Below the pieces are notes generated by a model. That model did not search any database. It worked only from the letters and a program-made list of their open reading frames with translations, and was not told where the DNA came from. A DNA stretch of 64,000 nucleotides from assembly GCA_020137815.1 (NCBI GenBank), contig CM035362.1, positions 1,488,001 to 1,552,000 on the forward strand, given 5' to 3'. Position 1 is the first letter of the stretch. The number at the start of each line of letters is the position of its first letter. This DNA comes from Hormiphora californensis (Eukaryota > Animalia > Ctenophora). The translations under genes and the position numbers were made by a program. Positions 1 to 59,400 of the stretch are shown here, piece after piece.

Positions 1-11897
<11,897 letters not shown>

Positions 11898-16933: not shown

Positions 16934-17381
16934 CTCTTAAGGTAGTGCACCAATACGGTATAGTAGATATGATATCTCAAACAATCGGAGAAGAATGGTT
17001 AAAACAGCCCAATTGCATGTGTGTGTGTGTGATGTTCAAGTTATTCTTTTTGTAAATTGTTCCCCTCTATGTTGAATGTACACAACTTATTGTAACAATA
17101 TCTCTCTCTTGTGACTGAGGAGTTGAAGTGTTTTACTGACCTTGTCCCCAATTTCCTTCCCATTTCCTTTACTCTTTCATACTGTCTCGACATCTGTACC
17201 CTGCTCCCTGATCCAAATGTACCAAAACCTTTTTCTCTCTACCCCTCCATACTCGACAGTAGACCTCTATCCCCGTCCCCATAGCTCTCTCTCCCTCTAT
17301 ATATCTTTATCTCTCTATAGCTCCATCCCCCTAGCTCTCTATCCCTCTATATCTCTATATCTCTCTATAGCTCAATCTAGG

Positions 17382-20300
17382 ATGCAAGTGGGAACGACCA
17401 CTGTTGAGAGTAATCCCAACGCCAACTATCTAGAAAGCAGGTGAGTTTGGGTAGGGGGTACACCTGGCGTTTTTTATCATCGTTTGCCCAACCAAATGAC
17501 TTCACCAGGGTTCATTCATTTTATTCCATATATCCCAATTTTAAAGCCGTTTTTGCACTCTTTTGTTGTCACCCATATTTGTAAAAAGAAAAGAAGGTTC
17601 TATAAAACAGCGTACAAACAGAACGACGAAACTACAAAGAGCCAAATTGTGTACCATGTGACATACAGACACACCTACAAAGAAAAGCACTGAACACACA
17701 CAAACACACACACACAAAGCCACAAAATATGTGCGTGTGCGTGTCTCCATCTCTCTGTATTATATGTATCTTTCCACATCTTTATACCACTTTGTTTGTG
17801 TGTGTGTGTGTCACAATTCTTTTTTGAACTTGAAGACAGGGTTCTAGCCTTTCTTTATCAGAAGATAGGTATGCGTAGTCGTTGATATGTATAATGTATA
17901 TCTAGGCCTTAGAGGGTATAATGATAGATATGAAATATTTATGGTGCAGTAATAAAAGTTTCGGTATGTTTTATATCAGGAATATTACAAAAATGGGCTC
18001 CGGGCGCTTGCCAGCGCTATGACTAGAACATCCAATAAGCATCATTCTGCTAAATAAAATAAGATACTTTTTCTCTCACCCAGTCTTCATGATCAAAATA
18101 TTATTTAATCCAATCCGGAATTCCAGATCCTTTTGAGATATTTCTCAACAACTTCTTTTTACTAGTAGATACTAGATACCCATATATACCCATACGGTGA
18201 TAGCTAAATTGTGCTTGTGTGTTTTTACCCAACTTCTTTTCAGATATTTCTGGGTAGCTTACACGGCGTCCGTATGTTTCCTGCACCTCATCTGTTCCTG
18301 CTTCCCATTTATTAGTGTATCCGCTGGGTGGCTCTGCACTCTCAACGTTCACAACATTGTAAGTGTTGGAATAGAAACTTTCCTTTAGAGTTTGAGATAT
18401 AACTAGTCTAGTGAAAACATGTTTTGACCCCCGAAATTTTTGATGCATTTGTAATTCCTTCACCAAAATGTCCTCAAAGGCCTTATGGGTGAGATCCCAA
18501 AAGTCTACCAACCAACTCCTGGGGGAAGTACCCTTAATTGGCCCTAATTGGCTTGATGGTATAACTCGCCAATTTTACTAACTCAGCTCTGGAGCGTCGT
18601 AGAGACCTTTCATTGGTCGCAATCGATCCGGAATATACGATTTTATATTAGTGCTATGAAGGTCCGAAGTCGCTATCTCTAACCGTTTAGCCGCTAATTG
18701 GATTTAACTGATTGATTGGACTTAATTGGCACCCTCGTATCTCAGCTCAGGGACATCGTAGAGACTTTTCATTGGTCGGAAACTGACCGGAATGTGCAAG
18801 TTTATATCAGTGCTATGAAGGTCCAAAGTCGCTATCTCCAACCGTTTAGCCGGAAATCGAACTTCTTTAAAACCGTTTTGCACATGGTTATTGGGTTTGT
18901 AAGATTTTCTGTTTCTCAGCTCAGGAGCGTCGTAGAGACTTGATTCCGGTTGCAAACGAACCGGAATACCCAAGTTTATATTGACGCTATGAAGGTCCGA
19001 AGTCGCTATCTCCAACCAATTAGCCGCAAATTGGACTTAATTGACCTTAATTGGGCTAAATAGCCAAATAGACCGCAAATTAGTGGCAAAATGTGTAACA
19101 AGCTAGTTCCTTCACTAAGTGACCCTAATCGGTCCCCCAAATCACCAAAAAAATTCCTGGCCGATCGGAGTTGCAGAAGACCCTTATTTCCGGGTGGGCG
19201 TGGCACCAGTATTTTCAGGCAGATGCCAAAAACGTAACTTTCCTTTGGGAAGGAGTAGAGACAAATCTAAGGACACTAAAATGCGTAGCGTCCTCGCATT
19301 AGTGGGGGTAGACGCCCATAAAAAGTTCCTATCTCATTTTGTTAATTGGTTAATTAGATAATTAGTTGTGTGCATAGCCATATTTCCGATATTATACGGT
19401 TTAAATGGCTCAGCCATGAATAAGGACCTGCTTTTGACCGCTGAATACGATTATGAGCAATATAATGGAACTCAGAGGTGTGAAAAGTGTCTTAGTTAGG
19501 CATAATTGGATATAATTGGGCATAATTGGGTACGTTGACCAGATCTTATCTTACTAGGTACACCCTAAAACCCACTTAAATATCTCCCAAGACTCTTATC
19601 TCCCAAGACTCTTATCTCCCAGAACCCGGTCAGAGCCTCCTAAATACCCCTCAGACATTTCTAGATACTCCTCCGATCCTTTAGATACCCTCAGAGTGGC
19701 CTCCGACTCTGAGGCTCAGAGGCCACTAGATACCCCCTAGAATCACTCGTATGTGTCAACCACATCGTATTGACGTCACCCAGCGCCCTCAGAATCCACT
19801 AGATGCCACTCAGACCGTACTGGATACCCCTCAGACCCTACCTGATACATATCCGACCGTGGTAGATACCATCAAACCCTACATGATACCCGTCAGAAAC
19901 TACTAGATACCCTAAGACTACCTGATACCCCTCTGACCCTCCAATATAACTCTTAGACCATGCTAGTTATCTCTCTGACTCTACCTGACATACCTCAGGC
20001 CGTGCTAAATGGCCCTGTGACTCTACTTGATACCCCTCAGACCCTACTAGATACGTATTACCTCTCAGACCATAAAAGATGCCCCTTAGACCATGCTAGA
20101 TATTACCAATATACGCCTTAGACCCTGCTAGATACTCCCATATCCAACTAGCTACACCTTAGACTTTTATAGATATCTCTTAGGCACTTCTAGACGCGCC
20201 AGACTCTATTAGACATCTCTCATACCCATCTAGAAGCCCTGAAACCCTTCTAGAACCCCTGAGGGCCTGACTAAGGCGTAAGCATATACCCCTCATACCC

Positions 20301-22456
20301 TTCTAAAAACCCTTTTGACCCTAACTAGTAGTAAAAGTGTCTAAAAGTGTCTTGAGGGTATTTAGTGGAGGCTGATGGGGATCTAGTAGAGTCTGACGCC
20401 TTTTTAGTGAGATTCAGAATCTACTAGATGCCCCTCAGACTGTGCTATATACCACTCAGACTCTACTAGATACTTTTAGAGCCAATTGGATACCCCTCAT
20501 AATCAACTAGATGCCATTCAGATTATGTTACTTTAGAGCTAAGAGTCTTGTAGATACATCTGTGAACATGCTAGTTTTGGTAATAAGGGGTTTCTAGAAG
20601 TGTATGAGGGGTATTTAGGATGCCCTGATGGGTTCTTGAAGGACATAAGAGATATCAAAAAATGTTTGGGGGCGTCTAGAAGTACATAAGAGATATGGTC
20701 CAAGGTGTAGCTAGTTGGATCTGGTAGTATCTAGGAGGGTCTGAGGCGTATATTAGTAGTTTCTAGCAGGGTCTCAGGGGCATCTAGTAGGATCTCAGGG
20801 GCGTCTAGTAGCCAGTAGGGTAGACGGGCATCTAAAATGGTCTATATGTTGTATTGGAGGGTCAGAGGGGTATCAGGTGAGATATTACTAGGGTATCTAA
20901 TAGGGTCTGAGGGGTATCCAGTACGGTCTGAGTGGCATCTAGTGGATTCTGAGGGCGCTGGGTGACGTCAATACGATGTGGTTGACACATACGAGTGATT
21001 CTAGGGGGTATCTAGTGGCCTCTGAGCCTCAGAGTCGGAGGCCACTCTGAGGGTATCTAAAGGATCGGAGGAGTATCTAGAAATGTCTGAGGGGTATTTA
21101 GGAGGCTCTGACCGGGTTCTGGGAGATAAGAGTCTTGGGAGATAAGAGTCTTGGGAGATATTTAAGTGGGTTTTAGGGTGTACCTAGTAAGATAAGATCT
21201 GGTCAACGTACCCAATTATGCCCAATTATATCCAATTATGCCTAACTAAGACACTTTTCACACCTCTGAGTTCCATTATATTGCTCATAATCGTATTCAG
21301 CGGTCAAAAGCAGGTCCTTATTCATGGCTGAGCCATTTAAACCGTATAATATCGGAAATATGGCTATGCACACAACTAATTATCTAATTAACCAATTAAC
21401 AAAATGAGATAGGAACTTTTTATGGGCGTCTACCCCCACTAATGCGAGGACGCTACACATTTTAATGTCCTTAGATTTGTCTCTACTCCTTCCCAAAGGA
21501 AAGTTACGTTTTTGGCATCTGCCTGAAAATACTGGTGCCACGCCCACCCGGAAATAAGGGTCTTCTGCAACTCCGATCGGCCAGGAATTTTTTTGGTGAT
21601 TTGGGGGACCCATTAGGGTCACTTAGTGAAGGAACTAGCTTGTTACACATTTTGCCACTAATTTGCGGTCTATTTGGCTATTTAGCCCAATTAAGGTCAA
21701 TTAAGTCCAATTTGCGGCTAATTGGTTGGAGATAGCGACTTCGGACCTTCATAGCGTCAATATAAACTTGGGTATTCCGGTTCGTTTGCAACCGGAATCA
21801 AGTCTCTACGACGCTCCTGAGCTGAGAAACAGAAAATCTTACAAACCCAATAACCATGCGCAAAACGGTTTTAAAGAAGTTCGATTTCCGGCTAAACGGT
21901 TGGAGATAGCGACTTTGGACCTTCATAGCACTGATATAAACTTGCACATTCCGGTCAGTTTCCGACCAATGAAAAGTCTCTACGATGTCCCGGAGCTGAG
22001 ATACGAGGGTGTCAATTAAGTCCAATCAATCAGTTAAATCCAATTAGCGGCTAAACGGTTAGAGATAGCGACTTCGGACCTTCATAGCACTAATATAAAA
22101 TCATATATTCCGGATCGATTGCGACCAATGAAAGGTCTCTACGACGCTCCAGAGCTGAGTTAGCAAAATTGGCGAGTTATACCATCAAGCCAATTAGGGC
22201 CAATTAAGGGTACTTCCCCCAGGAGTTGGTTGGTAGACTTTTGGGATCTCACCCAGAAGGCCTTTGAGGACATTTTAGTGAAGGAATTACAAATGCATCA
22301 AAAATTTCGGGGGTCGACCCCTTTTTTTACACGTTTTCACTAGACTATAACAGGAAGCCCTTGCAAAACCAATTTGTTTGCTGATTATATGTGTATTTAT
22401 TCTCTTCGATCCCACTCACTTTCATGTTACATTTCTTCGTCATTAGCCTCAAACTA

Positions 22457-22519
<63 letters not shown>

Positions 22520-22615
22520 CTCTCTCTCTCTTCTCTCTCATCTCTCTCCCTCCTCTCCACTCTCTCTCTCTCTCTCTCTCCTTCTCTCTCTCTCTCCTCT
22601 CTCACTCTCTCCCTC

Positions 22616-22668
<53 letters not shown>

Positions 22669-24031
22669 TCTCTCATTTTTCTACTCAACTGTCAAAGTTT
22701 CTCTTTTTCACAAACACACGCTCTTCACTGTCACACGCTATTCAATGTCCCCAAGTACTATAGAATTTTCATATAATACAATAAATTATAATGGTTGACA
22801 ACCATTGGTTGTGTAGGACATGAGCGTGTATATCGTGTTATTATTATTACCCCTTCCTTTTCCTCAGGGTAACTTCCTAGTCCTTCACTATCTCCCCTTC
22901 ATCTCCTTTTCCTCAGGGTAACTTCCTAGTCCTTCACTATCTCCCCTTCATCTCCTTTTCCTCAGGGTAACTTCCTAGTCCTTCACTACCTCCCCTTCAT
23001 CTCCTTTTCCTCAGGGTAACTTCCTAGTCCTTCACTATCTCCCCTTCATCTCCTTTTTCCTCAGGGTAACTTCCTAGTCCTTCACTATCTCCCCTTCATC
23101 TCCTTTTCCTCAGGGTAACTTCCTAGTCCTCCACTATCTCCCCTTCATCTCCTTTTCCTCAGGGTAACTTCCTAGTCCTTCACTACCTCCCCTTCATCTC
23201 CTTTTCCTCAGGGTAACTTCCTAGTCCTTCACTATCTCCCCTTCATCTCCTTTTCCTCAGGGTAACTTCCTAGTCCTTCACTATCTCCCCTTCATCTCCT
23301 TTTCCTCAGGGTAACTTCCTAGTCCTCCACTATCTCCCCTTCATCTCCTTTTCCTCAGGGTAACTTCCTAGTCCTTCACTATCTCCCCTTCATCTCCTTT
23401 TCCTCAGGGTAACTTCCTAGTCCTTCACTATCTCCCCTTCATCTCCTTTTCCTCAGGGTAACTTCCTAGTCCTTCACTATCTCCCCTTCATCTCCTTTTC
23501 CTCAGGGTAACTTCCTAGTCCTCCACTATCTCCCCTTCATCTCCTTTTCCTCAGGGTAACTTCCTAGTCCTCCACTATCTCCCCTTCATCTCCTTTTCCT
23601 CAGGGTAACTTCCTAGTCCTCCACTACCTCCGTGGGTCGCCCTTTGGGGGTGGTGACCAGGGTGAGGCGAGACTCCTCACACACTGGGAACAAATCAACC
23701 ATGGAAAACAGTGGACCAACACTCGCAAGTTCCTCATCATATTTCCTGTTGTCTTGTAAGTATGTTTTGGAAAACCTTAGATGATAAAATCTATTGAAGG
23801 ACGAGTGAATTGTCTCCTCAGCTCCTGGATCATCAAATCTCCCTTCTTCATTAATCCCCCCCAGCACTAACCAAATCTCCCTCCTCCTCCTACAGGTTCA
23901 TTTTGTGTCAGCATTACTGTAACTACGACTTTGAAGTCCTCCTCCTTTCAACCCCATCATTCCTCCTTCAATTCATCCCCAAACAGCCATTCATGCACGC
24001 AAAGCGTCTCTTTGGAATCAACCAATATTAG
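17382..24031 (+). CDS. ORMDL: ORM1-like protein (sphingolipid biosynthesis regulator), 153 aa
   Basis: Exons 17382-17440, 18244-18358, 23604-23755 and 23896-24031 sum to 462 nt: MQVGTTTVESNPNANYLESRYFWVAY..LHYLRGSPFGGGDQGEARLLTHWEQINHGKQWTNTRKFL..KRLFGINQY*. Confidence 0.96.
18404..22347. mobile_element. 3.9-kb foldback-type element in ORMDL intron 2
   Basis: ~1.44-kb near-perfect inverted arms (18404-19840 / 20901-22347) containing ~140-170-bp subrepeats; the centre is made of degenerate CTAGATACCCCTCAGACC units in both orientations; no transposase. Confidence 0.9.
22857..23630 (+). repeat. 49-bp tandem array (16 copies) of the ORMDL exon-3 acceptor plus exon start
   Basis: Unit CTCCCCTTCATCTCCTTTTCCTCAG|GGTAACTTCCTAGTCCTTCACTAT; the last copy runs into the true exon at 23604. 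Confidence 0.95.
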
Positions 24032-26805: not shown

Positions 26806-27858
26806 ATGGTAATCGAGCATCCTCGCTACGTCAGACTCCTTCTAATCCCTCTGTTTCTCCTCTGCCTAACCCTCATCCTCCTCGGCTCTCTTTACACACC
26901 TCACAACCTCTACAGCCCAGAGTTCAAACTGGGAAAATGCGAACTGATTACCAAGGATACTAAGGATGTTGAGAGATATTTATCGTGGGCTACATGTGAA
27001 TATCAGGAGCCCTTTCTAGGTGAAATGAGGGAGCGGAGATATCCCTGTCTGAAGGTCCAGGCGTGGTGGTATGTTGATGAGAGATACCGGGATGAACGTG
27101 AAAGGTATTATAGCGAGTACACCTACCCATACATCGGTAAAGGTAACATCGGGGTTAACGCTAGTGCGGTTAACCACGGCTGTTTAACGGTAACGCAATG
27201 TTTGGAGGATGAAGATGTAATGAGGGCTAGAGTTATGGATGTATGGTATAGGTTACTAGAACTAGTTAGGAAAAGTAAGGACGGAATCTTTGAATGTGCC
27301 TACCGGCCTTATGAATTTGATCAATTTTTTATTGATGATGGTTCAATCCTAATGCGAAGGGGCTACACGTATGATAGAGGAGTGGCAGCCGTCGTTGTGC
27401 CTTCTGTTTTAATAGGTATCAACATTTATATGATATTACTATCTGCTTGGCCCCGTGTCACCAGGATCTGGACTGGGGTTGTGTTTTTCCCTCTTTGGAC
27501 TCTGTGGTGTCTGTGGAGGAAACTGGTTAAGGAATCTGAGGAGGAGGCAATGGGTGGGAGAGTATCTCGAGGCAATGAAGGGGTTGGGGAGGTGGCAATG
27601 GGTGGGAGAGTATCTCGGGGCAATGAAGGGGTTGGGGAGGTAGCAATGGGTGGGAGAGTATCTCGGGGCAATGAAGGGGTTGGGGAGGTTGAAATTGGTC
27701 GGAGAATGGTACCAACTATTGTACCGCCTGCTCCGCTAATCTCCAACGAATATCGTCCTTCCTCTTCCAATAATACTGACCCACCTCATCCCTCCTCTTC
27801 TGCAGCGCCACCATCGTATGATGAAGTGATGGCATCAAACTTGAACTATGATAATTAA
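26806..27858 (+). CDS. KCNMB/CaKB-like membrane protein, paralog B (single exon)
   Basis: 350-aa ORF from ATG 26806: TM1, YPCLKV, GCLTVTQC, FECAYRP, ILMRRGY, TM2, three 16-aa repeats, PPSY motif. Confidence 0.72.
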   Translation: MVIEHPRYVRLLLIPLFLLCLTLILLGSLYTPHNLYSPEFKLGKCELITKDTKDVERYLSWATCEYQEPFLGEMRERRYPCLKVQAWWYVDERYRDERERYYSEYTYPYIGKGNIGVNASAVNHGCLTVTQCLEDEDVMRARVMDVWYRLLELVRKSKDGIFECAYRPYEFDQFFIDDGSILMRRGYTYDRGVAAVVVPSVLIGINIYMILLSAWPRVTRIWTGVVFFPLWTLWCLWRKLVKESEEEAMGGRVSRGNEGVGEVAMGGRVSRGNEGVGEVAMGGRVSRGNEGVGEVEIGRRMVPTIVPPAPLISNEYRPSSSNNTDPPHPSSSAAPPSYDEVMASNLNYDN

Positions 27859-33336: not shown

Positions 33337-36300
33337 GCGCGTGGCGGAGACTCCTTTCTATTTTGTAACGACTGTGCAGAGTGGGTAGCAGGACGTTATG
33401 TAACAGACAAGGTTTACCCTTGTTTCAATGCCCCGACATGCCGGGCATTTCTCAGTCCTGTAACGTACCCCCCAACGCGGCAGTTTTACCATTGCATGTG
33501 TGGTAATCTTGATGTTAGGTGAGTTTCAGGTGAAATTAAATTTCGATTATAATTGTTTGCTAGCGTACTTGGTAGCCTACATCGGCTCCTGAAAGGGTAC
33601 CATTCAAGAATCTTTGTTTTCGTACAAATACTCGCGAGAGCTAGGGTCTATCAAGACAATCTTAACCTCTCTCCCCTCACCCGCAGGGAGAATTACACGC
33701 CAGTAGTGTTGGGATGTACGAGGTGTGGGGAGTTAGTTAAACCAACCCTAGAACCACCCCAGCAGTTCTTCTACCTGTGCGCTTCCTGTGGTAAGTTCCA
33801 GGAACCGACCGACACAAGTAAACAACCAATCAGAACTCGTTATTTAGGTCACGTGACTAGTTATCAGCCAATCAGGGACCAGTATTTCCTGATTCGGTCG
33901 GTTCCTGGTTCTCCAGTTGATCAAAGTGGGCACCTGCTGTCCGGCCAATGCTCTGACCACAGTTTTCGCGCTCTGCAGAACATAAATGAGAATATAATAG
34001 GGTCAGGCCAATGCTCTGGCAGGGTACCCGTGGAGTCCTGTGGGGTATAACACAATTATGGTCTTTATATTCATTGGTGACGGTGTTGTATGTAAAGAAT
34101 GTTAATATGTAATACCTGATACCTAACCCAGGAACATTTTGGGATAAAGTTTGCTATGGCAACGAAACAGAATCTTGTTTGGAGTGTGGATTTGAGGTTG
34201 TACCACGGAGTGAGCCCCCACCAACATGGTACAATAATTAGACATTGATTATTGTTCGACATGATTATTGTTCGACATGATTATTGTTCGACATGATTAT
34301 TGTTAGACATGGGCCCTATTACTGCTGCAGTATTACTAGTTCACTTCAGTCAAAGCTCTATTTACCGGTTTACTGGATCTCGATATACCACTAGGAGCCC
34401 GGCGGGGTTTGACTACCAAATATCCCTCCTGTACAGGTATTTGTGGTGTATGTGTGGGGAGAGGACTTCTACACAAAGTTACAAACTTGTTATCATCGAT
34501 TGTCCAGGTGAGTGAACGCTCTAGAACCAGATAAAATATGTAGGTATTATATCCCTTCTTGGTTAGTTTTTGTTTTAATTTTCATCTGAATTCCTTTCTT
34601 TCTTTCTCTGCCGTCTTTCCTTCTTTCTTTGCTTTCTTTCTTTCCTTCTTTGCTGTCTTTCTTTCCTTCTTTGCTGTCTTTCTTCCTTTGACTTTCTCTG
34701 CTTCTTACCACCCTTCTTTCTTTGCTTTCTTTCTTTCCTTCTTTGCTGTCTTTCTTCCTTTGACTTTCTCTGCTTCTTACCACCCTTCTTTCTTTGCTTT
34801 CTTTCTTTCCTTCTTTGCTGTCTTTCTTCCTTTGACTTTCTCTGCTTCTTACCACCCTTCTTTTTTTCCTTCCCATCTTCATTCTCATCTTCTGAGGGAT
34901 CTTGGTCGGAAAATGTTGGTGGATTGCACTTTCCGCTGAAAGAGAGAACACCCAAAGTTATTAGCCAATAACTAGAAAGTTGATTGCCAGTTTTCACCTG
35001 GGTTAAAGTTAAACTATAAAGTCTATGGACTTGGTTTTAGTTTATTATCTGTAATTACCTGGTACATTGGAAGGTAGGAATGAATAATCGCCAGCTGATC
35101 CTGCAGTTATTGTTAACTTTTCGATCCATCAGCATGTGGCCTTTATACCCCCAATCCGCTCCCCACGAATTGCGAATCTAGACAAGATATGGGTTACTGT
35201 TATTTGTAGGGAAGAGCTAAAGTATCGCCCATTGGGCTGCTATACAAAACATGAATTCCCTCAATCATGTTGGCAATAACGGGAAAGACCGGGTCTTCGA
35301 AGACCAAATGTGTTACTTACCCTCCAGTAAGGATGTCCCTGTTCCTTTCCATATCCTACCACAGCGACCGCGTGTAACCCTCCTTTCCCCGAATTACACC
35401 CTGCTACATCTTTATACATGCCTCTACTGTACGAGAAGAGTGATGTGGGACAGCTAACTACAACAGAAACAATTCCCTCGGCAGCGAGCCGGAGAAGTAC
35501 TGCATCATCTCCATAAATCTGTCTGTGTCCGGTCAGTTTTGCTTTGGTCAGAGAGTTACCAGTGTTGTCATAGTTACACGTTCTGTCCTTAGCAACGTAA
35601 GGAGCCTGGTCCTCCGAGGCCAGTCGCCCGGATTTCTCCACGTAGTCATATGCACGGTTCATCCATCCACCCCCACAACCGTTGTTTAATGGTTCGTTTT
35701 CTGTTTTTTTCCGTGATTTTTTTCAATATTTTTCGAAGGAACAGTCAAGGATTTCCTGTTCGGAAAATGCGACAAGGTCACCAGTTGCTAGGTAATACCC
35801 GCCTTCAAAGGCTGATATAGCTGAGAAAGCCCAACAAGAACCACATTGCCCTTGATTTTTTACCGGAACTTGGGCACCTCGGGAAACCCAGTTAACGTCA
35901 GAAGGTAGGGAGGCATCGTTGCTGGTAAGAGTGATGGTAGATACTTCCTCTGCCTCCAGATCCCAAGGTGCGGCAGTGGAGATATTGATACCAAGATGAA
36001 GAGCCCGTTCAGGTTTGGTCATGATCGAGAACTTGTTGACCTCCGCCGTGAAAAGACTGTCGGAATCAGAGTTGATCTCATCCACGGTTTGCTTGTACTC
36101 TTTGAAGGCTAAGAAATGCTCCTTCAAGGCCTTCGGATTTGTGGTCCGTAGTACCATCCCATCGTCTTTTGAGAACCGTCTTACTGCTGCGAGGTACTCG
36201 TCAACAAGGGATGAGGAAGAGATTGCAAAGAGCAGAAGTAGAAGGAACAAAGTCCTCATCCTAAATCAAGCGAGTTTGAACTTGATGTCAAACGAAGAAA

Positions 36301-38772: not shown

Positions 38773-41700
38773 CTACTCGATCTGGTCCTTGCACCTTGTT
38801 GAAAGATGATCGAAGAAGAAACGTAACTGATCAACATTCTGAAATGAGAGGGGTGTCAGTAAGATCGCTTGTCAGCGAATCTGTTTTTCCCACGCTATCA
38901 GACCGCCTGTTACACTAATTGCTGAAATTGTAAACTTTTCACTGTGCGCGATACACGCGCGCCCCACACACTAATGTTCCATGTTTGTGACACAACAGTG
39001 CCCGAATCTGGCCTAAGGGGGCTGTTGTAACTGGTAGCAACGGTCAGGGAGTTATTTTAGTAACGCACGAAATCAAGAAAATAGAAATCTATATTTTCTC
39101 TAGTCCTCTACTCTGAGATAATAAGGTATAATAGGGTCTATCGGTTAAAACCGTGTCCTTGATTCTTACATATTCTGCAAGTAAAAAATGAATAACCTAA
39201 TTATTTTATCATTTAAATTCTCACCAGATTTCTGTTTGGTGTCGTTAACATCATATGACCGTATGTCTCCAACAACTTCTTGCTATTACTGTTTGAGTAA
39301 CCTTGAAGGATTTGGTGGAAGCACGACACTGCATTCTCCCGCTGTAGAGCCAACACTAAACAAGGTCGGTTGACAAATGTTTGACAAATCTGAGAGGGGG
39401 AGAAGGGGTTTTAGGGGTTCGAACACTTTGGTTTGACAGTCAAATCTAGAGGTACCACGGTAAACGGAGATTAGAGACAGTATAAAGACCCGACTGATCA
39501 CAATTTACAATCTCGAAATAAAAAATAAAAAATAAAAGGCAAACCTCGGTTCTCAATTTGAAGAGAGATCGGAATTTAGGGAATTGTGAAATTGGGATAG
39601 TCATTAACCGTGCACCAACCACATCAAATTGACAATTCTGTATCAGCCTGCAAGGAGAGTAAAGAATTGGTATAAAGATGGAAAATATGAGGTAGTAGCA
39701 TATAAGTTTTCAAATGGATCTAGGGAATTACTCACGTTATAAGTTGACTGGCGGGAGAGAGTCGGGACTGTTTAACAGGTTTTAGAAGGTCAGGTGGGAA
39801 AACAACAGACACCTGAGAGAAACAGGATTATAATTGGAAGTGAGATATTATGTTATAATTATGTAATTAGCTAATTGTGAGATTCATTATATTGCTAATT
39901 AGCTAATTAGCTAATGAGCAAATTAATTTTCAACCAAAATACTATACCGTTTGTAGGAGAGGTTTCAAAAGGCAGGGTTTACTGTCAAGACTTCGTGAGA
40001 GGGTGGAATCAACAATTTCATCAATATAGGAATGGGGAATCTGGGGGATAGAAGTGGTTATTATAGAGACCTCTGGGACAAGGGAGGACAGTAAACTGCA
40101 AAATGAGGGGAATGTTATGTCCACAATGCACCAGGCACCTACCCCTTCAGCCTGCATGTCCAGGGTGTTTGGGCAGCACAGTCCCCTTGGGAAATGTTCC
40201 CTCACCAGATCTACACTTTCAGTATAGGATATCGGGGCTGAAAGAAGATGTTTATCAATTATCAAACTAGTGGTACTTCAGTTTGGGTACAGTGTCCCTG
40301 AATAAACGTAGCGCGCGCGATAACACATGAGAGAGAGACAGCGCAGGAGGATAGAAGAAGGGGGGATATCATACCCAATACTTCAGTTACAGTGCTGCTT
40401 GTAGTCGGATTACCGTAATGGAAATACAGTAAGGAGACGCGCACGTTGCATAACATGCGGCAAAAAGTGCATGTGTTCAGCACGTACTAAAGTCCGTTTC
40501 AAGCGACTTGACCCATAATTCTTGGAATTTGGCGCATTGCACGTGTATTTACAAAGGGGAAATCCTGAATTTCCAGGAATCTCAGGTCAAGTCGTTTGAA
40601 ACGCACTTTATAAGCGCCCTGATTGGCCACGGTTGCGCGTCGTCTTACTGTTAGGATTCAAAAACTTGTATTTTATTATTTCCCTTTCTTCTAACTTGGA
40701 AAGAACAACCAATAAACAAAAAAAACATTAAAATTCTCACCTAAGAAATCCCCCGGCTGGCTGGCGAAACTTGCCCGGAGAGAGAACTGATGGTTGAACT
40801 TGGCCTCCTTTAGATCAGGGGGTCCAACAAGTTGACTCAATTTGTACACAGCATTCTCCGCTTGGACACAGAAAACTAGCCGATCAGAACGGGAGAGATG
40901 CAGCCCGACGATAGTGAATTCTGGGGGGTGGGAGGGTGGGTTTGGAGACTGAGGATAAATTTAGAGGGTTACTTTTTTAAATAACTTAGTACGAGGTATT
41001 TGAAAAAATATAGTTTCTATCCCCACGCATACCTTCCTGTTCCAATCGTTTCATTATTTTCCCCATACTCCCTACAAGTGCTGTCTCCAGAAGAGTTGGT
41101 ATAACTCGGGGTGGAGCCAACATAGACTTTAGTATCCCCTCACTCTGGTACACCAACCGATCCGGTAAATCGGAGAGAGTTAGTCGACCTGGTAGGGTAA
41201 ATCGGAGAGAGTTAGTCGACCTGGTAGGGTAAATCGGAGAGAGTTAGTCGACCTGGTAGGGTAAATCGGAGAGAGTTAGTCGACCTGGTAGGGAAAATCG
41301 GAGAGAGTTAGTCGACCTGGTAGGGTAAATCGGAGAGAGTTAGTCGACCTGGTACTCTGGTAGGGTAAATCGGAGAGAGTTAGTCGACCTGGTAGGTTAA
41401 ATCGGAGAGAGTTAGTCGACCTGATTTCCTGATACATAATTAAGATCCCTAGTATCTCCTATACTTACTAAAACTAATTAAATATAATTAACCAGATCTA
41501 ATTAACTAACCTTTATCCTTGCTAATGATGCTGTTAACGTGGGTTCGGGGTGGTGGGAGATGGAGTTGTCGGGGTCTCATTATCTCATCACTATACAGCT
41601 CCTTCTCAAAGAACAACAGAGACGCTGAGAGAGAGGATGGTATTATTATTTATGTGATACAGTCCTGTCACACAGCTGTGTGAAATCACTTTACCCGAGT

Positions 41701-44429
41701 AACCAGATAAGAATCTACCCTACCTGTAAAAGCGCAATTAAATAATATACCAAACATGCAAATAATTAATTAAATCAAAATAGGTAAATGATAAATAAAT
41801 CGTTCGAATAATATATAACACAAACCGAGTTTATAAGCATGTTCGGGTGTTTCACTCGTGATGCAATCCTTCTTATTGACCATCAACTCCTGAACCAGCT
41901 GAAAGGCGTTGATTGCCCGTACTAACAGTGCTAACACCGGAACTGGAAAACAGATATTGTGTGACACAAACATTATTCCATTGGGAGAGGGAAATTGAGA
42001 ACTCGAGTATTCTAATGAATGGCTGTCATGTAATTATTTAGAAAGCTCTCTATAGTAGTCGCGGGGTGATTTCGTAACCAAGCTAAATACCTGTTTGAAG
42101 ATGTTGCACATTTCCCTTCCAAGCGGGCTCTCCTACCTCATATTTAGTTAGCTCACGAGCCTGGTGTTAAAAATAAAAGTTAGTAATCTCTTCAGCTTCG
42201 GAAGAATCCGTCTTTTCACGGTCACACAGTTAGTAAGAGTGAACTGTAAGACTGTAAGAATGAACTGTAAGACTGTAAGACTGTAAGAATGAACTGTAAG
42301 ACCGTATCTTACGCAAGATTTGAGTAAATAATTTGTGCTATACCTGGAAGCTGCTAAGCCGGGGAATTAGCTTCACACCCAACAGTTCTAAATGTCCCGT
42401 CTCGTAGGGTGAACACTCGAGTCCCAAAGTCTCTGAAATGAAGTGAAAATGTAAAGCCAAACTCCAAAGGAAAGTTGCTGTTCTAACATTTCAACTTAGG
42501 AACATACTTGTGTAGTGGATGAGTCGCGTTATCTCCGATCCTGCGTTATCTACTGCAGTGGTCTGTCCTGTCAGTGCGATGACTACAATCTGCTCCAGAT
42601 CTCTTCTGTCTGGTATCATGTGCTGAAAAAAGGAAAGCGATTATTTTCTGAACAATAATCAAATAATCAACAAGGATGTCAGCTGTCAGGGAAATACCAT
42701 ACCGACGCGGATGGCTCAGATGTATCTCAAAACGAACATCCACAATTGGGTATCTTTCAGCTACATACCTGTTTGTGAGACATGAAAAAGTCGAAGGTTT
42801 TCCGTTCTGGTAGGAGTCCAAACTGTCCTCCCACGTTCCAGAGATTGTTATCGGAGAAGGGTATCATTTCAAAATAGAGATAGGGATCTGACGAGATGCT
42901 CAATTAGTGGGAGAAACAGTCTGAGGATGTCAAAATCTAGGTTGTCTCGTGCTGTGGTCCCGATTTGAGAGAACTGGCTAAAAACGGGGTCTACGGCGGC
43001 CGCCCCTTGACAGTCAGATGTGTTCAAATGAATATTGAATGAAATATTAAATGAATTAAAATATTGGTAATACCTGAAAGTTGCTCCTTTGAATACGTTA
43101 TATCGAGATCGGCTTCAGTTGTGCTCATCGTGTGGTCTAGGTTTCTATCCACTACTCTACTCTTCAACTCCCGTATCATTGCCCTGTAATATATGACCAT
43201 TATAAAAGCAATCAGTTTTAAAGCCAAAGTCTAAAGGAAAGTCTCTATACCGTGAGTGATAAATTCCGTTCCTCTTCCCCAAGAAAAGGACAGTTGAAGC
43301 GAGGGTTGGTTGTGACGGACAGGCGTCTGTGGAGAAGTTCTGGGGGAAAATGTGTCTATCATCCCTACTACCAGGGGTGGAGCCATTGGAACTTGATAGG
43401 GATGGAGAGGTAAGGGGTGTCCCATTAAACTTAGAGAAGATTTTAGTTTGTGTCTCAGATAATCCAAGACCAACGCACTTTCGGTAGTTCAATCGGCTTC
43501 GTCGAATTCCTGAAACCAATAAAAAGTGGTAAAGATACCGACTATATTTTTGGAATTGAAGCTGCTAAAAAGGAAACCTCACCCAACAAAGAAATGCCTC
43601 CCTGCTGTAGAACATCAACAACTTCCCCAAGCAGGGACGGAGAGATGAGGGGTGAAATTAGGAGGAAGAAGTATTCGTGGCTCCGCTCAAAGACCAGAGG
43701 AAGGGACGGTTCTTTAGGGATGGCACAGTTGAGGGGGAATCGAGGTCCAAAGTATTTTACCAGCTGTTGTCTGTATCGGGAGAAGAGAATCAGTTTAGGA
43801 ACAAAGAGAAACGATATGGTTTGTTTCTCTTTGTGCTATCGGTATTTTGTGCCGTCACACTGTATGAGTAGAGGAAGGTTGACAATGATTCGGCAAAGCA
43901 TGGATGATGAAATTGTATCATTGAACCTGCACTAAATTCATTTCTCACTCGTAACATACCCAGTTTTCTCTGTGGTCCGTGTGTTTGTCAGTGTGAACGT
44001 TCCGAATTGCATCCTCCTCATAACAGCCCTCACACTATCAGGGTCCGTTCGTAGGGCCAGTTCGCTATCCTGAGGCCCCAGTTTTTCTGAGAAGGGACAG
44101 TTCAAGTGTCAGACTTTTTTATCGAGTGTCCTAGCAACCAAAAACTAGTTGGTCCCAACTCGATTTAATTGTAAGGGTGATTTTCTGTGTTAGCTGTGTT
44201 GGATTATAGTGTTGGGAGAATGGGGCTTCCGTTCCAGTGCAGGGGGAAGTGGGCGCAAGGGTTGTGGACACAATTGTGGTTGTGTTCAAGCATTCGTATT
44301 GAAAAACTCTCGCATCGTGAATAGAACGTGTGAGAGGCATCTTACACTGCACATCACATGACCATCCACTATGATTGCAGTTGTACACGCACACATGTTC
44401 TTCTGTTGCTTGTCGAAGAGTGAGTGAGA

Positions 44430-44484
<55 letters not shown>

Positions 44485-47400
44485 TCCAACATGTACAGCT
44501 GTATGCAATGCATGTTCGTCACACACTATCATTCTATTAGTGCATGAAAGACTAGCCATCTCACTGATCACTCACAAAAATGAATCCGTAAAAAACCGAT
44601 AAAAAGAGACACTATTGATCCCGTGTACATAAACAATAAAAATCAATAACCTCTCTCTGACTCCCCCGGCTAATAATGTATGTATAATAAATGATATTTC
44701 TAACAAATGCTGGCTACATCCTGACGGGGGGGGGGGGGGGCACATTCTCACCTGCCCACCGTTTCGGTGCATCATGTCCTGATATAGCGACAGCTAGATG
44801 TGGCCCTCCTTCTTCTGATGATGATGATGATGAGAAACGTAGTGCCGATATTTCCAGTTGGACATCCTTTATACTGGACAGCACGTGAAATATACCCGCC
44901 TGGAGGGTGGATGATCTATAGTTAATGAGGACCGGTATGAGCGTTCTTGATAAACTATTAACGGGGTTATAACATTAATATTGTGGTGGATGTTACTCGT
45001 GTGATTATACCGGTGAGAGCAGGAGATTTCCAGTTATTGTTGACACACAGAATTCAGTAGATCCAGGATCAGATAGCGTCTCATGTATCTCACTGAGGGC
45101 CACCTTGTGCTTCCCTCGCATCGTCTCAGATGCCTGGACATGTAACGTTTAGTGATTTCTACATCAGTTTGAATATATTTTAACACTAACTCTCAATTAT
45201 CGGTTATATATTATACAGGGAAAGGGCTGGTTCTGGTTGACAAGAATCTTCGCCGATCTCAAAGAATCTACCTACATACAGGTGGCCCATAAATTATGAG
45301 GCCGGGGGACGAGCTGTACCTCCGAAACGGTGATAGTTGTGCAAAAACAAACTACGGGAACATGCTGGAATAATTCCTTGGTAACTTTTTGCAAATTTTG
45401 AGTTTTTTATTCAAAAGTTCATTTTTCATTCATGAACTATTTACACGTTCATTAATGAATTAAGGACTCTAATTTACCGAGAGTGAGCCATTTTGTTTGG
45501 GTTGAATTTATCTTTCCAATGAGCACCATGAAAATCAAATTGAAGCACCAGGTCACATGGCACTTGAGAAAATGCACATGCATGATTTTGGCTCTTCCTG
45601 CGACTTTCAATCAGCTGTATCACGGCTACCTTTTGTTCAATCTTTTTAAAAATTTGGGTGAACATTGGATAAGCAAAGATCTTTGCTCACAAGAAAAATC
45701 AAGGTCAAAACTGAAAGTTCATTTTTGAGTTTTGGTAGTTCATTCCACTCATTCAGGAACCAACATCCCTAAAGTGATGAAAAGTGATTGGTTTTGTTTG
45801 GTCCATACCCTGCAATGACAGAGAGGTGTAAAAACACGTTTTCGGGCTAGTTAGTGGGTGTCCATGTGAGCATGATGATATCTGACACCTCTTCTGAGCC
45901 ATAATCAAGGGATTTTCTCGAATTCAAGCATGTGATTTGGGTTATCTGTGATTGGTATCGTGCAGCAATGTTGAGAGATCTCATAGCACCTCAAAAATTA
46001 TGATTAGCTCAATAAAATGGGCTGATTTTGGATCGAAAATGGTAGTTTAGTTCATTTTGACGTATGTTTTAATCTCTTCTATCATAAATCAACTCATTTC
46101 ATTGAGCTAATCATAATTTTTGAGGTGCTATGAGATCTCTCAACATTGCTGCACGATACCAATCACAGATAACCCAAATCACATGCTTGAATTCGAGAAA
46201 ATCCCTTGATTATGGCTCAGAAGAGGTGTCAGATATCATCATGATCACATGGACACCCACTAACTAGCCCGAAAACGTGTTTTTTACACCTCTCTGTCAT
46301 CGTAGGGTATGGGCCAAACAAAATCAATCACTTTTCATCACTTTAGGGATGTTGGTTCCTGAATGAGTGGAATGAACTACCAAAACTCAAAAATGAACTT
46401 TCAGTTTTAACCTTGATTTTTCTTGTGAGCAAAGATCTTTGCTTATCCAATGTTCACCAAAATTTTTAAAAAGATTGAACAAAAGGTAGCCGTGATACAG
46501 CTGATTGAAAGTCGCAGGAAGAGCCAAAATCATGCATGTGCATTTTCTCAAGTGCCATGTGACCTGGTGCTTCAATTTGATTTTCATGGTGCTCATTGGA
46601 AAGATAAATTCAACCCAAACAAAATGGCTCACTCTCGGTAAATTAGAGTCCTTAATTCATTAATGAACGTGTAAATAGTTCATGAATGAAAAATGAACTT
46701 TTGAATAAAAAACTCAAAATTTGCAAAAAGTTACCAAGGAATTGTTCCAGCATGTTCCCGTAGTTTGTTTTTGCCCAACTATCACCGTTTCGGAGGTACA
46801 GCTCGTCCCCCGGCCTCATAATTTATGGGCCACCTTGTAATAAATAAAATATCCAGTAACTCGAAAACAACCTATTCGATCATGGTATAACAATATTTCA
46901 TACCGATTCAGGGTCCACCTGCCAGGCAGTGATGGCAGGTTGGGTTGTGAACAGTTCCCCTGCTTCATTCCACTGTGACACAAGGAAGAGCTTGCTGAGA
47001 CTTTCACAGAAAGGGTAATCCCGGGGGTTTAGTAGAGTGGTGCTGAAAATGAGTAAATATATTCCTTGTGATTATTGAATACCTGTTAAAATCCTCTTAC
47101 TCTGGCTGACTCTTGGAGGGGGGTGGGCTTCGCACTCCGCCAAGGGACAGCTAGCGAGTTACTCAAAAAAATCGAAGAAGATAACAATAATTGCCTGATT
47201 GCCCGGTAATTGCTCGATAGTTACCTAAATAGCTGTGGATCAATCTGGGCGATAGAGTGAGTTGAAAAGAAGGCTTTAGTATCCCGGTAGAAGGTATTTG
47301 TTTGTCGAACACTGCGTACCAAGAACACATACGTTAGGCAGTTACTGAAATTATAGGGCTGGTTAGTATTCTATTATGAAGTGGTATATATGTCACGCAA

Positions 47401-50400
47401 TGCCAGTATGACCTATAATTTATAGCTTTAACCATTGTTAACCTCATACACCCCCTAATCGTCTCTAATTTCTCTCTGATCCTAAATATTTGTGTCTTGT
47501 CCTGGTTATAATACATCACCTACTTGACGAAGGTAAGTCGGGTTGAGAGAAGGGAGAAGGGTTTGGCACCAGAGCTCAACAACCAAGTGAGCACTCCCTC
47601 AGTCGCGTATTCGGAAACCGTGGGTATTTCATCATAGCAGTAGGAGTAATATTCGGGAGGAAGGGATGACAGTTCACCTGCAAATAGGGTTCGATCAGGA
47701 ACCGACCGACACAAGTAAACAACCAATCAGAACTCGTTATTTAGGTCACGTGACTGGTTATCAGCCAATCAGGGACCAGCATTTCCTGATTCGGTTGGTT
47801 CCTGGGTTCGATAATATTTTCATGTATATGTTTTATCCCCCTCCAGGTAAATACAGTCGGACACCGATGTACCGGGATACTAAGGGGAGAGGCGTTTGCC
47901 CGGTAAATCGGGGAACCCAGTATATCGGGGCCTGACTGTAGAACCAATCGTGGTATAAAAATTTGGGAGCATTTTTTGGCACTTCGCCAGTCTGGGTACA
48001 AGTTCAAAGTTTGCAGTGCTAACTGCTAATTTATATCACGTTTAAATCATGACGTCCTTTTGGCCGACTCCATCTCATGACACTCCAAGCTGCAGCGACT
48101 ATTGTAGAACTCAAACAATAACCTCCCTCAATTTGAGGGTTACAAGACCTTATCACATGGCCATTATTTCTCTCACCTCTTCAGCTCACCCGTTTACAGT
48201 GCTAAATTATTAGTTCGCTGGAAAAATTTTGCCAACCTTTCAGAGAGAAATATTTTCTTATCAGCTAAAATGCTCAGCCAATAAGACCTTGGGAAATCTC
48301 GTCTTTAGGTTATATTCGCATATTTTATAAAAATACAGAGTTATTTATTGAGTTATTGAATTAGCATCTCACTCCGGCTACAAAGAATTTCTTATCTGTC
48401 TTTAGTGGGTATATGCAGCAGTAAACTCGTGAGGACGCTATCATTATTCGAGAATTTGTTATTTTGTGGCTGTACAGATCCATCGATATGTTTTCTCGTC
48501 TCAGTCTGATATATGTATACCTAACGTCCTAACAACCTTTCTTTTGCTTTCTTTTTTGCAAATGTACCGATCTTACTCTCTTTAGTAAAAGTAATGATCT
48601 CGCTCAGCTCTCTTTAGTAAAAGTAATGATCTCGCTCAGCTCTCTTTAGTAAAATTAACGATCTCACTTTGCTCTCTTTAGTAAAAGTAACCATCTCACT
48701 TTGCTCTCTTTAGTAAAAGTAATGATCTCGCTCAGCTCTCTTTAGTAAAAGTAATGATCCCGCTCAGCTCTCTTTAGTAAAATTAACGATCTCACTTTGC
48801 TCTCTTTAGTAAAAGTAACCATCTCACTTTGCTCTCTTTAGTAAAAGTAACGATCTCACTTTGCGGTTGTGGGGCGAACTATGATGTTGTGTATCCTAGT
48901 GACGATCCATCTTGTGACTGTACGATCAGCGATATCAACCTTACCAGGCCCGTTGCCACCAGAAACTACAGCTGAACCAACACTAAATAACTCGAATTAT
49001 GGTGAGTTGTTTTCAAAGGATAATAATAGGGTATGTTAAAGTGAGAGTGGACCGAATCAGAATTGGAAAAGTTTGTTGTAGGTAGTAGAGATTAGCTTTC
49101 TGAGCATTTTGCGTTTTTGCCGCTCAAAATCGACCCACCCATCACTGAGATATTTTTGTTATGTTGGGAGAACTCCTGTTTAATCAGTATGTATAAAACA
49201 GATTAGAAACAATAGTGATGTTTTACTAATACATTCTGAATATAAGCAGTGAGGTTGACATGTCCATGCACAGAAGCAGGGCAATGCAAGCCAGCATATT
49301 AAAAGAATGTGTTAGTAAAACACAAGGATTGTTTCTATCCTGTTTCATAAATATTGATCTAGCAGGAATTCTCCCAACATAACAAAAATATCTCAGTGAT
49401 GAGTGGATCGATTTTGAGCGGCAAAAACGCAAAATGCTCAGAAACCTAATCTCTACTACCTACAAAAAACGTGTCCAATTCTGATCCGGTCCACTCTCAC
49501 TTTAACTTGTGCCACCCGAAATTTGGGTTACTGACACTCCTTCACTTTGCATTGAATCCAAAAATGACCTTTAAGTTTATTGTAGATCTCATTAAGATCA
49601 TACGAAAACTTGAAGGTCATGTTTTGATTGGATGCACAAAAAGGGTGGTGCACGACATTGGCACGTGCTGATCTAAGCGCTCCTAGTACCCAGTGGTAAC
49701 AATATTATAAAGTTTCAGTGACATGGACGGATGTCGATAAAAAACAACGACCAATCTCATGGGACCTAAAAGATAGGAGCTTTTCAATACTAACTAAAAT
49801 TAATGGAGACGTGATACTCCATCTGAGCAACGAGGGCAGGTCCTATTCAGAGCGGCTTGATATATGCCTCCACCGTAGCCCATTTGCATACAGTTTGGGA
49901 GACTGCATATCGGGCTCGGCCTATCCACGGCCTATCCTCGACGAACTCGTTATTTGGACAATCAGAAGGAACGAAACCCATCTTTCAATTTCTTGCGATG
50001 AACAGGAGATGGTGCATGTTTCCCTCTCAGGGACAGGCTGTATAAATTATGAAATATCGGCGGTGACTTTTGATAGGAACGATACAGCATCGATAAGTTA
50101 TGGACCGACAATGCCTTTTAGAGGTACAGTTAGACCCCAATTTACCGGGAAGCTTCGGGCAAAAGGGGTTTTGCCCGGTAAATCGGGGTGTTGGTAGATC
50201 GGTGTCCGACTGTAAAGTTTAAATTCTACATATACAGTCGGATCCCGATTTAGTGGCCCCCGATTTAGTGGCACCCCGATTTAGTGGCAGGATAATTTTC
50301 CCCCGATATAGGAAATTAACAGCATTTGACCCCGATTTAGTGGACACCCCGATTTAGTGGACAAAACCCTTTCCGAGGATGCCACTAAATTGGGGTCCGA

Positions 50401-56400: not shown

Positions 56401-59400
56401 TCTCCCTCTGCATCTCCAACAACTTTCTATCTGTTTTCCGTTGCCGCATCGCAATATCCTCCTCCTGTCTCCGTCTCTCGATCTCAGTCTGTTGTTTAAC
56501 TGCCTGGCTATCTTCTGCCCAGGCAACCCTTTTCTTGGGAGGAGGCTCCACCCAGGGAACGGGATGAAGTGTTGCTTCTGGAGGTGGACCGATATCAATC
56601 GGCTGGTCTGTCGAGGTACCAGATGATGTAGTCACCTTATTGGGGGTTATATTAGCGGACACTCCTGTGGAGACACTGGTTGATGCTGAAACTCCTGTTG
56701 AGACCCCAGTTGAGATACTTTGAGTTGAGACCCCAGTTGAGATACTTTGAGTTGAGACCCCAGTTGAAACATTTTCACCACCAGGGGAGACACTAGTACC
56801 CGATATAGGTGTGTCTTCCTTTTTCTCCTCCCTAAAGAAAGATGTACTTTTAACTTTTGATCGCATGCTCGCCCATGCCAATCGATCTGTCTCGTCGTCA
56901 CTATCATCATCGGAGGGTGGTCGGGCAAACTTCCGTGTTAGGTGAACTGGTGCTATCCTCTGTAATGGAAACAATTGGGTCAATTATTATAACGAAGTAC
57001 TCTAACCAGGAAACGACCGAACCGGGTTTTTTTCCACCGAACCGAACCGAACCGAATTTGAAAAACTTTTTTACCGAACCGAACCGAACCGAACCGAACC
57101 GAATTTCGGTAACCGAACCGAACCGAACCATACAAAACTTTTTCTATATTATAAATGTTTCTCTAAAAAGTCATGGAGAGCACCGATCAAGGTATTGAGA
57201 ATCATTCTCTGAAATTTTGTTAAAAAATGTTTGAAAAAAGTCAATTTTGTGAAAAAAATTTCAAAGTCAATTTTATCGTAAATTTTCTATGTCAATTTTT
57301 GCGTACGAATCGTGTTTCGAATCGGCAATGCTATACGGGAATGGTATTGCTAATTAGCAGGATTAAACGAACCATGAATCGTGTCTCTCTAAATTTCCTA
57401 ATTAGATTTGATGGGGATCACGTATCAGCACAATCCATCTCGGATCCACTAATTACCAACATCACTCCCGTTTAGCATTGTCGATTAGAAACACGATTCG
57501 TATACCATAATTTACTTAAAATATTTTTCACAAAAAAAATTTCACAAAATTTCAGGTAATGATTCTCAATACCTTGATCGATGCTCTCCATGAATTTTTA
57601 GAGAAACATTTAATTTTGTGAAAAAACTTTGTAAAATATTTCAAAGTCAATTTCGGAAAAAAAAATCTATGTCAATTTTGCCGTACGAATCGTGTTGCGA
57701 ATCGGTGATGCTATGCGGCAGTGCTCTCGCTAATTAGCAGGATTTATTGAAACATGAATCGTTTCCCCTAAACTTCCTAATTAGATTTGATGGGGGATCA
57801 CGTATCAGCATAATCCATCTCGGACCCACTAATTAGCAACATCACTCCCGCTTAGCAATACCGATTCGAAACACGATTCGTACGCAAAAATTGACATAGA
57901 AAATTTTCCATAAAATTGACTTTGAAATATTTTCCAAACTTTTTTTACAAAATTTCAGAGAATGATTCTTAACACCTTGATCGGTGCTCTCCATGAATTT
58001 AAAAAAAAAAGTTTCTGAATTTGTTGACCCTCTCATGAGGACACGATTCGACGGGAAGTCAGGTATCAAATCAATCCATATCGAACCCGCTAACTAGCGA
58101 AATCATTTCCACATAGCACCACCGATTCGAAATAGGGTTAATACGGCGAAATTGACATTGAAATCCATACAATTTTTGTGAAATAATTGAAAAATTTTGC
58201 ATGAAAAAGCCCGATTTCTGGGCATTTTTTGACCAAAAAATTCGGTGGTTCGGCCAAAATTTCCTACCGAACCGAACCGAACCGAACCGCCCAAAAAACA
58301 CCGAATTTCCGAACCGAACCGAACCGAACCGAATATTCGGTCGCTTCCTGACTCTAACGTAGATTTTAATATGTAATACTATTAGATACATTTAGTTTGT
58401 CTAATCAGTGGCTAAAACAAATAGTGGAATGATCAGGCCGCCAGATAGATAAAAAAACAGCAATGATATTTCTTACCCCGGGTTTAAACTTGGTAGGTTC
58501 CGGATCCTTGTTCCTCAGATCCAGCTTCACAGTTCCTCTATCAGGAGATCCGGAGACATTCAAATCTAAATGGCTGGGCGTGATAGACCTCGCATCGCGG
58601 CGTGATGGGGTCGGAGAATCCGTTTCATTGAACGTCTCTGCCAATCGTTCCAGTTCCTCCATTACCAGAGTGCTGGTGCTGCTACCACTATCATCGTCAC
58701 TCTGGTGCTGGTCTGAATCTGTTCAGGATGGTTGTTTATAAATATACAGAAGAGAGAGTATTTGTTTAACTCCCTTTCTCTCTCTCAATCGACTATCCCT
58801 CAACATCACTCTATTTCACTCTCTCGCTTAGGAATATTCAGGAGTAAGGACATACTTTCAAACTCAATATCAGGCGAGTCTTCTAACAGTGAGATGAGTT
58901 GATCCAAGTTCAAATCGGTCGACGTTCGCAGCGGGAAGTTAGGAGGACTCTCAGTCTCTTGCTGTTTCTGTTCGTCAGATTTCGTTGTAATTTGACTGAC
59001 AAGAGAGTCAATAAAACTGTGCACACTCAAATCTTTTATCTCGTTTTCAGTGCGAGTAACATCAGAAGAAGGGGGTGATTCTGAAAGTTTTGGATGCTCC
59101 GTTTCCTCAGGATCATCATCCAAGTCAGCAGAGGAGGAGTCATGCTGCCTTTCCAATCCTTCATTTGCAGAATTTGAAACTTTGGTAACAACGGGTCTAC
59201 GAGTCACTATCTCCTGAACCTGCAGTGAATAATCCTGGTTAGCAATCAATTGCATGTGGGTAGAACCGACATTTATCAACACATATTATCATGTTTATTC
59301 AAAAACAAAAATAACTGCATTATGTTTCATAATGCTATGTTTCCCCGCCAACCTTTATTTTCATAACCATCTAATGTGAAGGCGGGACAGACATTTCCGA

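Follow-up and report, generated by a model that had tools for sequence, protein, structure and literature searches.

In the genome of the ctenophore Hormiphora californensis, the boundary between intron 2 and exon 3 of an ORMDL gene carries a tandem array of 49-bp units, each of which repeats the end of the intron and the head of the exon. The array is likely a minisatellite over the splice junction, a structure termed a "mirage", that arose through unstable repeats and is tolerated, splicing being predicted to use mainly the last acceptor. It lies in a window of 64,000 nucleotides (GenBank assembly GCA_020137815.1, contig CM035362.1, forward-strand positions 1,488,001 to 1,552,000). Table 1 presents the coordinates of the array, its host gene and the other arrays of the window, numbered from the first base of the window.

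ORMDL acts as a brake on sphingolipid synthesis. The assignment of the host gene to this family, proposed beforehand from the sequence, is borne out by matches to the Pfam profile PF04061 and by full-length alignment to three relatives. The model comprises four coding exons separated by GT-AG introns of 803, 5245 and 140 nt, and encodes 153 amino acids. Profile positions run continuously over three exons, with exon 3 scoring 62 bits against a cut-off of 27, and exons 2 and 4 alone staying under it at 21.4 and 24.5 bits. With exon 3 as the query, three relatives were recovered among eight candidates. The 153-aa model is identical to Mnemiopsis leidyi ORMDL P0002 at 123/153 residues without a gap, and to P0001 and P0003 at 122/151 and 117/153 residues, respectively. 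The label "exon 3" holds in the sense of coding exon 3. Upstream of the start codon, a 50-bp x 2 pyrimidine/TAG duplication is found at 17276-17381 and another TAG immediately precedes the ORMDL ATG, an arrangement that suggests an upstream non-coding exon or a trans-splice site. Most of the length of intron 2 is owed to a 3944-bp fold-back insertion, which has TAG...CTA ends and arms that could pair as a long hairpin in the ORMDL pre-mRNA. We take its ends to resemble those of Academ transposons.

Table 1. Coordinates of the ORMDL gene, its junction array and the other junction arrays of the window.
Feature	Position	Strand	Remarks
Cullin donor array, 52 bp x 8	3241-3658	-	Over the donor of exon 3727-3614; used directly, donor 1 alone preserves the frame
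31-bp satellite, about 58 copies	4874-5637 and 9074-10187		57 copies of an acceptor-like core (24 + 33); ends ~40 nt before cullin acceptor 4833
ORMDL coding exon 1 (ATG to donor)	17382..17440	+	Gene model; tblastn of three relatives
ORMDL coding exon 2	18244..18358	+	Phase-0 donor 18358/18359; PF04061 positions 12-48; relatives
ORMDL intron 2, 5245 bp	18359..23603	+	Contains the fold-back element and 15 decoy units
Fold-back insertion, 3944 bp, in ORMDL intron 2	18404..22347	.	1415-bp inverted arms, 99.3% identical; TAAC on both sides (4-bp duplication)
Likely ancestral intron end before copy 1	22838..22867	+	Without the 5-nt insert of later tails; top acceptor score, 14.5 bits
Tandem array at the intron 2/exon 3 junction	22855-23631	+	TRF: period 49, 15.8 copies, 98% matches
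15 decoy units (fourteen of 49 bp and one of 50 bp)	22868..23603	+	28 nt of exon-3 head, then a 21-nt pyrimidine tract ending in CAG
Only in-frame, stop-free cassette, 51 nt/17 codons	23015..23065	+	Extra T in unit 4; ends at a weak donor
ORMDL coding exon 3, 152 nt	23604..23755	+	Behind acceptor 16; PF04061 positions 50-97; relatives
ORMDL coding exon 4 to stop	23896..24031	+	After the 140-bp intron; PF04061 positions 99-135; relatives
Acceptor array, 32 bp x 8	41164-41423	-	Three exons stay in frame through the last site alone
Short acceptor array, CTTACAG units	42243-42306	-	Same multi-exon gene (~38.7-48.5 kb) as 41164-41423

The array comprises sixteen CAG/GGTAAC acceptors placed 49 nt apart, and once 50, with first exon-like bases running from 22868 (copy 1) to 23604 (copy 16) and no such acceptor on the opposite strand. 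A junction-spanning 15-mer occurs 16 times within the window, and the best match of the unit to the window outside the array is 11 bp long (E 0.48). The sixteen near-identical acceptors of the original prediction are thus present, and are better counted as fifteen decoys followed by the real acceptor. Each unit combines a pyrimidine tract, CAG and an exon head as had been described, with the head measuring 28 nt rather than the ~24 nt given. This part equals the start of the exon except at positions 18 and 24. Among the fifteen upstream units, eight are of the modal type, four have C at position 18, two have C at position 24 and one (unit 4) has an extra T. All tails after copy 1 carry a 5-nt insert, so the working acceptor 16 has a tail of the unit type and not the presumed ancestral one. 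The array displays the marks of a mirage in that its tandem units are of minisatellite size (Table 1), and each spans a real exon-intron boundary (21 nt of intron tail and 28 nt of exon head, the exon being backed by Pfam and three relatives). In addition, the coding logic of the genomic sequence makes the extra copies intronic and the outermost copy authentic.

By direct splicing, acceptor 16 is the sole acceptor that gives the full 153-aa ORMDL. All fifteen upstream acceptors truncate the protein at 75 aa, or 78 for acceptor 4, and their stops lie 147-834 nt upstream of the last junction. The peptide expected from any upstream copy, GNFLVLHYLPFISFSSG followed by a stop, was recovered for 14 of the 15, and acceptor 4, with its extra T, yields a slightly longer stopped peptide. 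For acceptors 13-15, the predicted exons are 201-299 nt in length and contain premature stops.

The strength of the sites was assessed with small weight matrices built from 24 acceptors (11 homology-confirmed, 13 ab initio) and 25 donors (12 homology-confirmed, 13 ab initio) of the window. Fourteen of the sixteen array acceptors score 12.4 bits, while copy 1 reaches 14.5 and copy 5 reaches 10.4. Other acceptors of the window range from 2.3 to 15.2 bits (leave-one-out), and the array value exceeds 19 of the 24. It also exceeds each of the 282 other AGs in the upstream intron, the best of which scores 10.0 bits. The description of the copies as strong acceptors is therefore well founded.

Since the acceptors are alike in sequence, the choice of acceptor 16 would have to come from its context; by score it is weaker than copy 1 (12.4 vs 14.5 bits). 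What may distinguish copy 16 is that it alone precedes a purine-containing exon body and lies nearest, at 152 nt, to the exon-3 donor. The next 49 nt contain 11 purines after the decoys and 19 after the real site, and GAR motifs number 0 per unit and 4 in exon 3. The layout of exon 3, with a long upstream intron (5245 nt) and a short downstream intron (140 nt), would favor pairing across the exon. In human data, the overall preference among competing acceptors is for the upstream site; however, this preference drops under exon definition, and introns of the long/short class mimic exon definition (PMC9225289). RNA structure was rejected as the selector, acceptor 16 being 0.73 unpaired as compared to 0.80-0.85 for copies 2-15. 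Scanning for an AG starts at the branch point and not at the donor. Because of this starting point, scanning need not fail at the array should every unit have a branch point of its own, and the original expectation that a first-AG model would break down here was not upheld. In human data, acceptors at least 20 nt apart are typically set by separate branch points and tracts (PMC9225289). Four branch-point motifs were tried, and only TRAY is enriched before the other acceptors of the window (18/24 against a shuffled mean of 11.9, p 0.008 uncorrected). The only TRAY of the unit starts at -47, inside the copy of the exon head and just beyond the range counted in that test.

Since nearby pseudo-sites are used in some human donor arrays (6-16 and CBS intron 13; PMC1557585), some leak to acceptors 13-15 is plausible. 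Leaky products of acceptors 1-15 would be targets of nonsense-mediated decay if this pathway works as in other animals. One could imagine a dose rheostat in which the upstream acceptors are measurably used, their products are destroyed and the number of copies tunes the level of ORMDL. The uniform strength of the copies, the stop-containing exons predicted for acceptors 13-15 and the pseudo-site use in the two human arrays would all suit such a device. Nevertheless, the rheostat is an unlikely reading, as similar arrays in unrelated genes of the window point to a general mutational habit rather than an ORMDL-specific device, and amphioxus mirages give normal mRNA (PMC3087553, PMC3902484). An array tolerated as a by-product also fits two others in the window, where the frame is likewise kept by the outermost site only: one of eight sites in the cullin donor array (the exon-proximal one) and one of eight in the 32-bp array (the last acceptor). 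This pattern is to be expected if arrays persist at places where their outermost site remains functional.

A tolerated minisatellite may have begun when a short duplication brought together the exon head and the intron tail, both rich in C/T, with later expansion by slippage or unequal exchange. At the two variable sites of the unit, the minor form is the base of the real exon, and variants recur at a spacing of four units (units 3 and 7; units 6, 10 and 14). The pattern fits multi-unit duplication together with exchange with the terminal copy, and may be taken as indirect evidence of array turnover. Selection on the exon-like part of the units was considered, as both variable sites are synonymous, and was rejected, since synonymous sites make up 8 of the 12 C sites and both would be so by chance with a probability of 0.42. 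The same variants bear on whether all or most of the array is an assembly artefact absent from the DNA of the animal. Units that are 98% alike in assembled sequence could raise this concern, but the six substitutions in the fifteen units are confined to 2 of 49 positions and all equal the exon base, unlike random error. The units share a tail unlike the one intron end ahead of copy 1, so they are not plain copies of one locus. The window contains no N, its 1.4-kb inverted arms and 1-kb satellites were resolved, and real mirages are documented in other animals (PMC3087553, PMC3902484). An artefact is therefore very unlikely.

The donor-like G/GTAACT that had been noted one base after each AG is present as AG/G/GT; as a working site it did not stand. 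It scores 3.5 bits in the genome and 3.2 bits once joined to exon 2, below all 25 donors of the window (3.8-10.4 bits), and C at +5 occurs in none of these 25. In a recursive splice site, the donor comes immediately after the acceptor AG, and no base remains after re-splicing. Recursive use of zero length cannot occur here, the donor being displaced by one base; AG/G/GT leaves one base, re-splicing stops at 59 aa and the donor is weak, so a ratchet point was rejected. It could also be supposed that the unit, serving as both acceptor and donor in the manner of the intron-gain model drawn for mirages (PMC3087553 Fig. 7), is a nascent exon or recursive-splicing unit that adds a 17-residue insert via unit 4. 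Of the 680 routes that include a single cassette of the array, just one stays open: it enters at acceptor 4, leaves by the donor of copy 5 and rejoins at acceptor 16, giving 170 aa with a 538-nt GT-AG intron. This route, however, relies on a donor weaker than 25/25 others and on a single additional T within a run of Ts, possibly a sequencing error, and an insert at that place is found in 0 of 3 relatives, which makes a nascent exon extremely unlikely. A tandem exon duplication or coding repeat was rejected, as 49 nt is not divisible by 3 and 679 of the 680 cassette routes are closed.

The suggestion that the pattern recurs in the window was correct, with four more junction-spanning arrays identified (Table 1). 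Two belong to a cullin gene on the minus strand, for which a 10-exon model shares 302 of 331 residues with P0004. The 31-bp satellite aligns to cullin acceptor 4833 with a score of 33, the maximum in 6190 control windows being 25, and is likely an old, diverged mirage that was split by an insert. This LTR-like insert (5637-9073) has two identical 298-bp direct repeats and, near 6320-6370, an apparent stretch that we presume to be a zinc knuckle. In the cullin donor array, the CAG/GT of each unit makes a 27-nt in-frame mini-exon conceivable. Two further repeats adjoin cullin junctions: a 22-bp x 6 array (129-258, minus strand), with a CTAAC-like motif and pyrimidine tract, ends ~9 nt before acceptor 120 and abuts the junction without spanning it, and an 11-bp x 89 array (10857-11832) begins a few bases after the first donor (11838), which is not copied. 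The remaining two junction-spanning arrays lie in the minus-strand gene at ~38.7-48.5 kb, an ab initio model for which no relatives were found by Pfam or among 489 candidates (best Atlas value 0.78); one weak match, P0006, does not extend to other exons. In this gene, inspection by eye suggests another fold-back insertion, also with long inverted arms, at ~45260-46840, which is absent from the filtered self-comparison. On the plus strand, a 32-bp x 9 array at 48576-48864, with a pyrimidine tract and TAG, stands just before an ATG near 48880 that seemingly starts a signal peptide, and is possibly an array of untranslated-exon or trans-splice acceptors. Elsewhere, a dispersed ~100-bp element with a near-palindromic core is present in five copies (near 1221, 10443, 16881, 33847 and 47744), which we assume to be a common ctenophore intronic repeat. 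Tandem repeats at 27540-27705, 34642-34871 and 56697-56767, with periods of 48, 72 and 27, are apparently in frame inside coding exons, the second of them in a minus-strand gene nested within an intron of a plus-strand gene.

The arrays were hand-picked from 72 TRF rows, leaving out microsatellites, coding repeats, two-copy repeats and repeats in apparent transposons. Within the two homology-confirmed genes, three of five intronic arrays span a junction where 0.63 are expected (P 0.014); this becomes 2/4 (P 0.06) without the ORMDL array and 2/5 (P 0.12) if the diverged satellite is not counted. Over the whole window, 5/9 non-coding arrays span a junction, with a rough, post hoc P of 0.0002-0.007 across three sets of assumptions on the number of junctions and the non-coding length, and 4/8 do so without the ORMDL array (P 0.001-0.02). 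An array is found at 3 of the 24 homology-confirmed splice sites. As the window had been flagged beforehand for this pattern and the figures are post hoc, the enrichment of arrays at junctions is suggestive. It is possible, though doubtful, that splice junctions, for the most part acceptors, are preferred birthplaces of minisatellites throughout the genome of this ctenophore. If so, mirages would extend to one of the earliest-branching animal lineages, a link between splice-site sequence or splicing and the birth of repeats would be indicated, and many natural arrays of identical acceptors would exist, some of them containing cassette exons that, like unit 4, are nascent and in frame. If such arrays proved dense, this would bear on how ctenophore genes are annotated and assembled and on the model in which introns are gained by tandem duplication. 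Taken alone, the ORMDL locus adds one more example of a described phenomenon and offers a clean potential test of acceptor choice. Few natural loci have so far been used to test how the spliceosome chooses among identical 3' splice sites. Because fifteen acceptors share the same last ~20 bases and each direct mis-choice leads to a premature stop, the locus could measure the fidelity of exon definition outside vertebrates.

The novelty implied for this structure does not hold, since it already has a name and precedents in amphioxus and in human F7 and CBS. A literature search for ctenophore mirages or junction minisatellites returned nothing relevant within a coverage that excluded most subscription papers, and the ORMDL array is apparently the first mirage noted for a ctenophore within the literature searched. 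In human paralogs, tandem repeats at exon-intron boundaries can become new introns (PMC2812944). Human donor VNTRs in F7 intron 7 (37 bp), CBS intron 13, 6-16, LAMIN B2 and PDGF use the first site or first few sites (PMC1557585). These rows of identical sites, with the exon-proximal one used, match the cullin donor array; they are donor arrays, whereas that of ORMDL is an acceptor array. The CBS allele 844ins68 is closer in kind, as its duplicated intron 7/exon 8 junction also joins an intron end to an exon head, and the favored distal copy restores normal mRNA (PMC2630376). The source speaks of "donors", yet the junction it describes is an acceptor. CBS has two copies where ORMDL has sixteen, and distal use was shown by experiment in CBS whereas it is predicted for ORMDL. 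The nearest likeness is to the mirage minisatellites of amphioxus, known from Adh3, troponin C, the globins BflGb6 and BflGb9, and PGBD5, in which regular splicing is undisturbed and, by RT-PCR, apparently normal (PMC3087553, PMC3902484). Their units span 10 to 160 bp, and in BflGb6 an intron's 3' end and an exon's 5' part are duplicated head to tail, as in ORMDL (PMC3087553). The 49-bp ORMDL unit falls within the 10-72 bp given for Adh3. The hosts differ, one being a ctenophore and the other a chordate, as do the copy numbers (16 in ORMDL, 3-6 in BflGb6), and length polymorphism and normal mRNA were shown in amphioxus whereas the ORMDL array is known here from its genomic sequence. In both, the AG/GT signals are kept and the boundary copy differs from the inner copies, and several loci of this kind occur in the amphioxus genome as well as in the Hormiphora window, at both acceptors and donors.
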